Source of the DNA: Vairimorpha necatrix
Taxonomy: Eukaryota
Direction of reading: 5' to 3'
Assembly: GCA_036630325.1 (NCBI GenBank)
Contig: CP142729.1
Coordinates: 1,240,001 to 1,304,000, forward strand
Length of the DNA: 64,000 nt
Shown: one piece after another, positions 57,665-58,281 of the stretch
Layout: the number at the start of each line of letters is the position of its first letter
Position numbering within the stretch: the stretch's first letter is position 1
The notes under the pieces: generated by a model
What the model saw: the letters and a program-made list of their open reading frames with translations, nothing else
What the model was told of the DNA's origin: nothing
The model's database searches: none
Position numbers and translations under genes: made by a program

Positions 57665-57696
57665 TGTGATATATTTGTATAATTTCTATCCCCATT

Positions 57697-58281
57697 ATGA
57701 TAAATAAAGACATGGGGGCGATACCGAATCGTCAGTTTACAAGTGTGGACTGTGGTCTAGAGGCCAAAAAGTTATTAAAGGAAGTCAGAAGAATAATGTA
57801 TAGGTTGGAGATGGAGGAAGTAGAAATCAGTTTGTGGAAGCAGAGAATATTTATGGAAGGAAGTGAAGAAATAAAAAATTTCATGGTAGAAAGAATTAGT
57901 AAAGAGGACGAATATTATAAAATAATTGAGAAATTAGAGGAGGAAATATGTAGAGAAGAAAGAACTAAAAAAGAAGAAGAAAATAGGAGAGAACTTATGG
58001 AGGTCATAGCTGAGAATGTTAGAGAAACTGTGAGAAAAGAAATTCAAGAGAAAGATTTAGTTTTAAGGAATACAGTACAAGAAATAAGAAATAATAGGAA
58101 TTGTTTTAATTGTGGGAAATTCGGCCATATGGCCAGGAACTGTTATGTAGGAAGGAAAAATAGTCAGGAAAAAAATATAAATTTTAATAAGTACTTAAAT
58201 TTTGACGAAAACCAAAGTTGTAGTAGCAGTAATGATAATAAAGGATATAATCCAGGTGGAAAGACAAAAGAGTTAAGTTAA
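57697..58281 (+). CDS. gag: Gag of the gypsy element (zinc knuckle); starts inside the 5' LTR
   Basis: CFNCGKFGHMARNC; ATG 57697 lies within LTR 57665..57712 after CCCC. Confidence 0.85.
   Translation: MINKDMGAIPNRQFTSVDCGLEAKKLLKEVRRIMYRLEMEEVEISLWKQRIFMEGSEEIKNFMVERISKEDEYYKIIEKLEEEICREERTKKEEENRRELMEVIAENVRETVRKEIQEKDLVLRNTVQEIRNNRNCFNCGKFGHMARNCYVGRKNSQEKNINFNKYLNFDENQSCSSSNDNKGYNPGGKTKELS

Follow-up and report, generated by a model that had tools for sequence, protein, structure and literature searches.

Can a terminal repeat of fewer than 50 nucleotides serve as the long terminal repeat (LTR) of a retrotransposon and at the same time supply its promoter, the start codon of gag and a 3′-end signal? 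This question is raised by a locus within the 64-kb stretch of DNA analysed here, referred to as the window, where an earlier reading made from the letters alone (the sequence-only reading) had described an LTR of this kind.

Terminal repeats of element A

The unit in question, termed element A, begins with a 5′-LTR of 48 nucleotides (57665-57712, plus strand), which is repeated directly as a 3′-LTR of 49 nucleotides (60834-60882, plus strand), and comprises 3218 bp in total. Both LTRs start with TG and end with CA, and the likeness between them ends sharply at either border. Thus, the repeat is present as claimed by the sequence-only reading, whereas the copies are not identical: the 3′-LTR contains a fifth C in its C-run, which is the sole difference between the two, and the longest exact match between them is 29 nucleotides. 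When the halves of the LTR were searched for in the 64-kb window with up to 3 mismatches, two occurrences were obtained for each half, a result reached by 0 of 100 shuffles.

Directly 3′ of the 5′-LTR, a sequence of the TGG type resembling a primer binding site (PBS), TGGGGGCGATACC.., begins at position 57713, and a polypurine tract (PPT) of 10 nucleotides consisting of purines only (GAGGAGGGGA, 60824-60833, plus strand) adjoins the 3′-LTR, in line with the earlier claim that the LTR is bounded by these two features. The candidate PBS region (57713-57730, plus strand) lies within the gag frame and codes for GAIPNR, and the motif MGA(I/T) is kept in relatives. A target-site duplication is not visible in the flanks of element A, which read ..AGTTTT and TTTAAT.., respectively.

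Within the 48 nucleotides of the 5′-LTR, a CCCC run corresponding to the CCC start motif of host genes (57690-57693, plus strand; LTR positions 26-29) is followed by an ATG (57697-57699; from LTR position 33) located 16 nucleotides from the LTR end. This LTR ATG is in the gag frame, five codons 5′ of a second ATG, the junction ATG (57712-57714), in which the terminal A of the LTR is joined to the TG that opens the PBS. Between the two lies the hexamer AATAAA (57703-57708; LTR positions 39-44), a candidate poly(A) signal 4 nucleotides before the LTR end.

Other copies of the short LTR

Contigs from two sequencing runs, designated X1 and X2, stop exactly at the LTR borders of element A. In run X2 the breaks are located at positions 60833 (3 contigs), 60883 (3 contigs) and 60885 (2 contigs). 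Three contigs of this run enter position 60834 from unlike sequence, and their flanks before this position differ, as their mutual agreement is only 0.64. At the opposite border, the point of departure is 60882 for three contigs and 60884 for two. As neither flank of the window is matched by these loose ends, other insertions or solo LTRs have exactly these borders. The borders that these copies have in common with element A speak against the concern attached to the sequence-only reading, that other copies might have longer LTRs. In run X1, the loose end before position 57693 represents a variant of the LTR head, equal in length and with a C-run before the same ATG, in which the TG start comes after one further letter. 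In several places of element A, single-letter indels distinguish the window from the contigs of other copies. A new copy has both of its LTRs rebuilt from one RNA, so that a short LTR found at several loci must itself have been replicated in this form.

We further searched for the DNA of relatives. The search with the gag alignment A2 gave no match in metagenome, genome or viral contigs, and the search with P0151, a polyprotein of Vairimorpha apis, gave none in genome or viral contigs. A metagenome locus (L001) retrieved by a degenerate LTR/PBS pattern is unrelated, does not contain the features of the element and was discarded as a chance match.

The summed contig depth of run X2 at the ends of element A (57693-58085 and 60706-60967) exceeds the depth in the middle and on the left flank by a factor of 10 to 100, and on the right flank it is near zero. 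This unevenness could reflect many truncated copies or a run that is not plain genomic DNA, alternatives between which depths summed over copies cannot decide.

Coding content and decay of element A

The gag ORF of element A encodes 194 amino acids (57697-58281, plus strand), with a zf-CCHC knuckle detected by Pfam at residues 135-149. It is followed on the same strand by a reverse transcriptase (RT) in two frames (58251-59191; Pfam RVT_1 in two pieces and tblastn with P0151), an RNase H in two pieces (59311-59779; Pfam RT_RNaseH and RT_RNaseH_2) and an integrase comprising the H2C2 zinc finger, the rve core and a C-terminal part, which is interrupted by stops and frame changes (59849-60810). 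The last pol frame closes at the TGA at 60808-60810, 13 nucleotides 5′ of the purine tract. The order of the Pfam domains, zf-CCHC, RVT_1, RT_RNaseH, Integrase_H2C2 and rve, is that of Ty3/gypsy elements. With pol distributed over three frames and stops in the integrase part, this copy is dead.

By tblastn, the V. apis polyprotein P0151 (588 aa) is colinear with element A in three frames (57709-58263, 58368-58862 and 58853-59536), and this alignment spans gag, RT and RNase H. An aspartic protease was not detected by Pfam at E <= 0.01 in nine pieces of the window, nor in P0151, where 123 amino acids separate the knuckle (up to residue 149) from RVT_1 (from residue 273). As P0151 is colinear with element A and likewise contains no protease, the small size of the latter is a trait of the family rather than the outcome of an internal deletion. 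The longest ORF among the relatives is that of 588 amino acids, and an intact full-length relative was not found among them. Within this ORF of V. apis, RT follows gag directly in a single frame; the counterpart of P0151 residues 150-272 in the window is located at 58100-58400.

A second family with the same LTR plan

The tblastn search with P0151 also yielded a weaker RT/RNase H match of 35% on the minus strand (40010-40666), which belongs to a second, internally deleted element of the gypsy type. This element B (38713-41060, minus strand, 2348 bp) is, judged by the RT identity of 35% to P0151, a different family from element A. Its 5′-LTR (40991-41060) is a direct repeat of 70 nucleotides that starts with TG and ends in CA, and its 3′-LTR (38713-38782), likewise of 70 nucleotides, ends in TA and shows 1 mismatch to the former. 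Directly 3′ of the 5′-LTR the sequence continues with TGGTGGAGAA.., the PBS-like stretch is TGGTGGAGAATG (40979-40990), and a polypurine tract, AGAGGGGGA (38783-38791), directly precedes the 3′-LTR. A perfect 5-bp target-site duplication, GCGAG, is present on both outer sides (upstream copy 41061-41065, downstream copy 38708-38712; all minus strand). Since element B is complete in terms of LTRs, PBS-like sequence, PPT and perfect duplication, it is proof that elements with very short LTRs insert into this genome.

The LTR of element B contains CCCC at positions 31-34, ATG at 43-45 and AATAAA at 55-60, the latter ending 10 nucleotides before the LTR end. Thus, both families follow the order CCCC, ATG, AATAAA and CA|TGG, and the CCC-ATG-AATAAA order, the conservation of which had been proposed as a check, recurs within the window in another family. 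Counting both strands, the window contains 7 distinct sites with the pattern CCC..ATG..AATAAA, 4 of which are the LTRs of elements A and B. Element B also has a junction ATG, which is in frame with its LTR ATG nine codons away; a frame change near 40.88-40.90 kb parts the LTR ATG and the junction from the gag-like body. Both gypsy copies in the window are dead.

Host gene-start and gene-end signals in the LTR

We then compared the LTR signals with those of the host genes in the window, which has a G+C content of 26.4%. Of 18 ORFs with a length of 150 amino acids or more, we set aside the gag ORF of element A and one ORF antisense to a longer ORF, which left a set of 16. A CCC within 15 nucleotides 5′ of the start codon was found for 10 of these 16 host ORFs as compared to 99 of all 2277 ATGs (4.3%; binomial p = 1.5e-10). 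This enrichment identifies the LTR sequence CCCCATTATG as a host start context, as the sequence-only reading had proposed for the CCC-ATG of the LTR. The same reading had pointed to the gene for leucyl-tRNA synthetase (LeuRS) starting at 7187 on the minus strand; this gene begins with ..TACCCCATTATGAG, and the 10-mer CCCCATTATG is indeed common to its start and the LTR of element A. The 875-aa ORF at 7187 encodes a class I aminoacyl-tRNA synthetase, the best named relatives of which are leucyl-tRNA synthetases (59% for Nosema granulosis, 52-53% for Encephalitozoon species). Judged by these synthetases and by the named relatives of gag, the host belongs to the microsporidia of the Nosema/Vairimorpha clade.

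Between the stop codon and position +47, AATAAA is present in 7 of the 16 host genes, against a background of 13.5% (p = 0.003); the frequency of the hexamer in this genome is 3.15 per kb and strand. The host genes ending at 7255 and starting at 7187 on the same strand are separated by a gap of 67 nucleotides, and a host promoter plus terminator can therefore fit into this length.

These observations are in line with the available text of Peyretaillade et al. 2009 on microsporidia, which describes a CCC-like motif just 5′ of the start codon and 5′-UTRs of less than 7 nucleotides in E. cuniculi, N. ceranae and others, AAUAAA near the stop codon in about half of the genes, and a cleavage distance of roughly 20 nucleotides from AAUAAA (PMC2803860). 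As in the host genes described there, the LTR has a C-triplet just 5′ of the ATG, an AT-rich stretch upstream and AATAAA, at host-like spacing; unlike in these genes, the signals are packed into a terminal repeat that would also have to serve as the ends for integrase and as R in strand transfer.

Gag is read through the PBS

The ORF that starts at 57697 runs through both the LTR end and the PBS, as the sequence-only reading had noted, and the same holds for relatives. A HMMER scan with the gag of element A gave 244 matches at E <= 0.001, of which 150 were listed, most of them covering the knuckle only. Ten cluster representatives among the matches listed cover the N-terminus and form, with the gag of the window, a set of 11; P0003 and P0012, multi-knuckle proteins matching the CCHC motif only, were left out of this count. 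The named relatives belong to Vairimorpha necatrix, V. apis and Nosema granulosis.

In all 11 N-termini among the matches listed, Met is found at the position of the junction ATG (residue 6 of the window gag), and for G7 and A8 conservation amounts to 90% or more. The alignment supports that the reading of gag through the PBS is conserved, at the protein level, in relatives of the three named species. Six of the 11 cluster representatives among the matches listed start at the junction Met, and 5 of the 11 carry an extension of five residues, namely MINKD, MINKY (twice), MINKG and MTSTE. Moreover, in one 90% cluster of junction starters, one of three members is extended by MLSTY. Counted by clusters, the extension is thus present in 6 of 11 among the matches listed, always with five codons and in frame. 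The claim that an LTR ATG in the gag frame is conserved therefore stands only in part: the ATG is in frame wherever it is present, and it is present in only those 6 clusters among the matches listed. An LTR ATG that is either in frame or absent is what would be expected if the RNA starts upstream of it, which does not prove which AUG is used. Furthermore, AATAAA is no constant of the family, because the N-termini MTSTE and MLSTY cannot encode it at this place. We also considered N-myristoylation of an MG.. start and dropped it, as the junction start of element B reads MV...

Primer of reverse transcription

A sequence starting with TGG adjoins both 5′-LTRs, which would be compatible with priming by a tRNA. 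The sole tRNA gene of the window, a tRNA-Met (28309-28381), matches neither the PBS of element A nor that of element B, and further copies of either PBS core were not found within the window. A C preceding CCA is typical of eukaryotic tRNA-Pro, which gives a lead, and only a lead, to the primer.

Proposed mechanism

We consider it probable that element A is a decayed, protease-less Ty3/gypsy element of 3.2 kb from the Nosema/Vairimorpha group, the family LTR of which measures approximately 48 nucleotides, and that it functioned as follows. The first 25-31 nucleotides of the LTR, which are AT-rich, TATA-like and end in the CCCC run, would represent U3 and form a complete core promoter of the microsporidian style. 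Transcription would begin a few nucleotides 5′ of the LTR ATG in the fashion of host genes; the remaining 17-23 nucleotides up to the terminal CA would constitute R, and U5 would be essentially absent. On this near-leaderless RNA, gag would start at the first AUG, which would be the LTR ATG where it is present and the junction ATG elsewhere, and translation would continue straight through the PBS, which would double as gag codons 6-12.

The 3′-cleavage of the transcript would probably occur at or just past the LTR end. With respect to the poly(A) signal that the sequence-only reading had assigned to the LTR, the hexamer is present, but it is implied only by the MINK-type N-termini and, in element A, lies too close to the end. 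As AATAAA ends 4 nucleotides (element A) or 10 nucleotides (element B) before the LTR end, cleavage at the usual distance would take place at or beyond this end. Cleavage after approximately 20 nucleotides, the distance given in the available text of PMC2803860, would fall into the flanking DNA, which counts against the proposal. Cleavage past the LTR end would nevertheless not block replication, since the minus-strand strong-stop DNA of approximately 20 nucleotides would pair with the internal R copy, that is, with the 3′ R whatever tail follows. Some retroviruses manage with an R of approximately 15 nucleotides.

A bolder version of this proposal, which we put forward tentatively and with somewhat less than even confidence, is that the LTR has collapsed to U3 plus R within less than 50 nucleotides and without U5, so that promoter, gag start, 3′-end signal, integrase ends and approximately 20 nucleotides of strand-transfer homology overlap. 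Combined with the loss of the protease and a coding PBS, this may give the shortest LTR known and, at 3.2 kb, a gag-pol LTR retroelement smaller than any other known, a design that at least two families may have reached independently in one genome, and that may be invisible to LTR finders at their default settings.

Alternative explanations

The same data could be read such that the LTR is as short as stated while gag starts at the junction ATG, the LTR ATG and AATAAA being incidental AT-rich sequence tolerated in frame. Indeed, the absence of the LTR ATG from 5 of 11 clusters among the matches listed means that the junction ATG could be the real start; the invariant Met, the conservation of G7 and A8, the cluster representatives that begin at this position and the 90% cluster with two junction starters and one extended member point in this direction, as does the frequency of AATAAA in this genome. 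On the other hand, the extension, when present, always consists of five codons in frame in three peptide versions, and MINK is common to 4 clusters among the matches listed despite gag bodies that are only 40-53% identical to that of the window. Moreover, the LTR ATG follows the C-run after 3 nucleotides in element A and 8 nucleotides in element B, as in host genes, whereas the junction ATG follows it after 18 and 35 nucleotides, respectively, the latter value being outside the host range. We therefore regard a start at the junction ATG throughout as unlikely, though it deserves to be taken seriously.

Markedly less probable is that the 48-nucleotide repeats are remnants of longer LTRs in a crippled, non-autonomous lineage that relied on copying in trans and on host promoters in its flanks for transcription, so that the repeats would not represent a self-sufficient promoter. 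Such a lineage would account for the missing protease, which may make the element dependent on another one, for the fact that every copy found is broken, and for the lack of a visible target-site duplication at element A. It is difficult to reconcile with LTRs being rebuilt from one RNA, which means that the short LTR at several loci must have supported replication, with canonical TG..CA borders that adjoin PBS and PPT, with a second family of the same design and a perfect target-site duplication, and with an LTR-encoded N-terminal extension that is kept across species. A third explanation replaces the tRNA as primer by the 5′-end of the element's own RNA, as in Tf1 of fission yeast, where this end is complementary to the PBS over approximately 11 nucleotides. 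The LTR stretch CCCCAT is complementary to ATGGGG in the PBS over six contiguous bases, or seven with the five Cs of the 3′-LTR, and the minimum-energy fold does pair them. This complementarity of only 6-7 nucleotides falls short of that of Tf1 and has no equivalent in element B, where the matching 8-mer is on the same strand; the fold is no better than those of shuffled sequences (z = -1.30; 19 of 200 shuffles fold as well), the X1 variant breaks the C-run before the ATG, and the PBS begins with TGG as in tRNA-primed elements. Self-priming is accordingly the most improbable of the explanations considered here, and we retain the proposal of a functional, host-like LTR of approximately 48 nucleotides.

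Comparison with known elements

The Nbr families of Nosema bombycis belong to Ty3/gypsy. According to the available text of PMC2474625, nearly all N. bombycis elements code for gag and protease as well as for RT, RNase H and integrase. Like the Nbr families, element A is microsporidian, has a gag with a CCHC knuckle and shows the order RT, RNase H and integrase; unlike the elements described there, its family contains no protease. In V. necatrix and V. apis, the named relatives of its gag carry annotations as retrotransposon or pol polyproteins.

A gag that starts inside the 5′-LTR, with the PBS within the gag reading frame, has a precedent in Ty1 of Saccharomyces cerevisiae, the LTR of which comprises several hundred bp with distinct U3, R and U5. 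Element A shares both properties with Ty1, whereas its whole LTR measures only 48-49 nucleotides.

The shortest LTRs that we found in print are those of 76-90 bp in the accessible text of PMC3281118. They belong to the grass elements FRetro64 (76-90 bp) and FRetro129 or SMART (85 bp), a plant Ty1/copia element and its non-coding derivative with TGT..ACA ends and 5-bp target-site duplications; this text calls FRetro129 the smallest LTR retrotransposon reported and mentions no start codon in the LTR. On these figures, the LTRs of the grass elements are approximately 1.6-1.9 times longer than that of element A. With regard to microsporidia, our literature search found no account of LTR, PBS or PPT anatomy: the main text of Parisot 2014 makes no statement on LTR lengths, PBS, CCC or protease, Pan 2013 gives totals only, and Benachenhou 2013 gives no minimum LTR length. 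An earlier record is possible in Xu et al. 2006, which deals with Nosema LTR elements, or in the supplements of Parisot et al. 2014. Taken together, the data show the architecture of element A, its host-like signals and the return of this architecture in a second family, and from these we infer promoter use, the start and poly(A) sites, the extents of R and U5 and the primer. The interpretation given by the sequence-only reading is partly supported, and element A represents a Ty3/gypsy element whose record-short LTR mimics the host.

If the repeats of 48-70 nucleotides do work as LTRs, the minimum content that an LTR requires has to be set lower than before: approximately 30 nucleotides of promoter and a repeat of approximately 20 nucleotides would suffice for an LTR to support transcription, strand transfer and integration, and a mobile element would copy the extreme economy of gene expression of its microsporidian host. 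Moreover, the default values of LTRharvest are 30 for the seed and 100 for the minimum LTR length, as stated in the available text of PMC2253517. These settings would miss elements A and B, because their LTRs are 48-70 nucleotides long and the longest exact match in element A is 29 nucleotides. The LTR retrotransposon content of microsporidian genomes may thus be under-annotated by structure-based tools.

Further features of the window

Within the ORF 3837-4394, a stretch on the plus strand (4175-4215) resembles the tail of the element A LTR, with a C-run, an ATG, an AT-rich hexamer and GAC, at the cost of two indels. This resemblance is probably due to chance; the stretch could also be a very old remnant of a solo LTR.

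A dispersed repeat of approximately 250-300 bp is present at 23380-23680 and 29083-29383, 5.7 kb apart, with a mean column identity of 83% and one exact 26-mer. Between its two copies lie the ORF 25217-26929 and the tRNA-Met gene. The window is otherwise gene-dense, with the exception of the regions 20100-25200, 27000-35600, 36600-45200 and 46400-55000, in which ORFs of at least 150 amino acids were not found. As at least one of these ORF-poor stretches contains a dead retroelement, they may hold more decayed mobile DNA.
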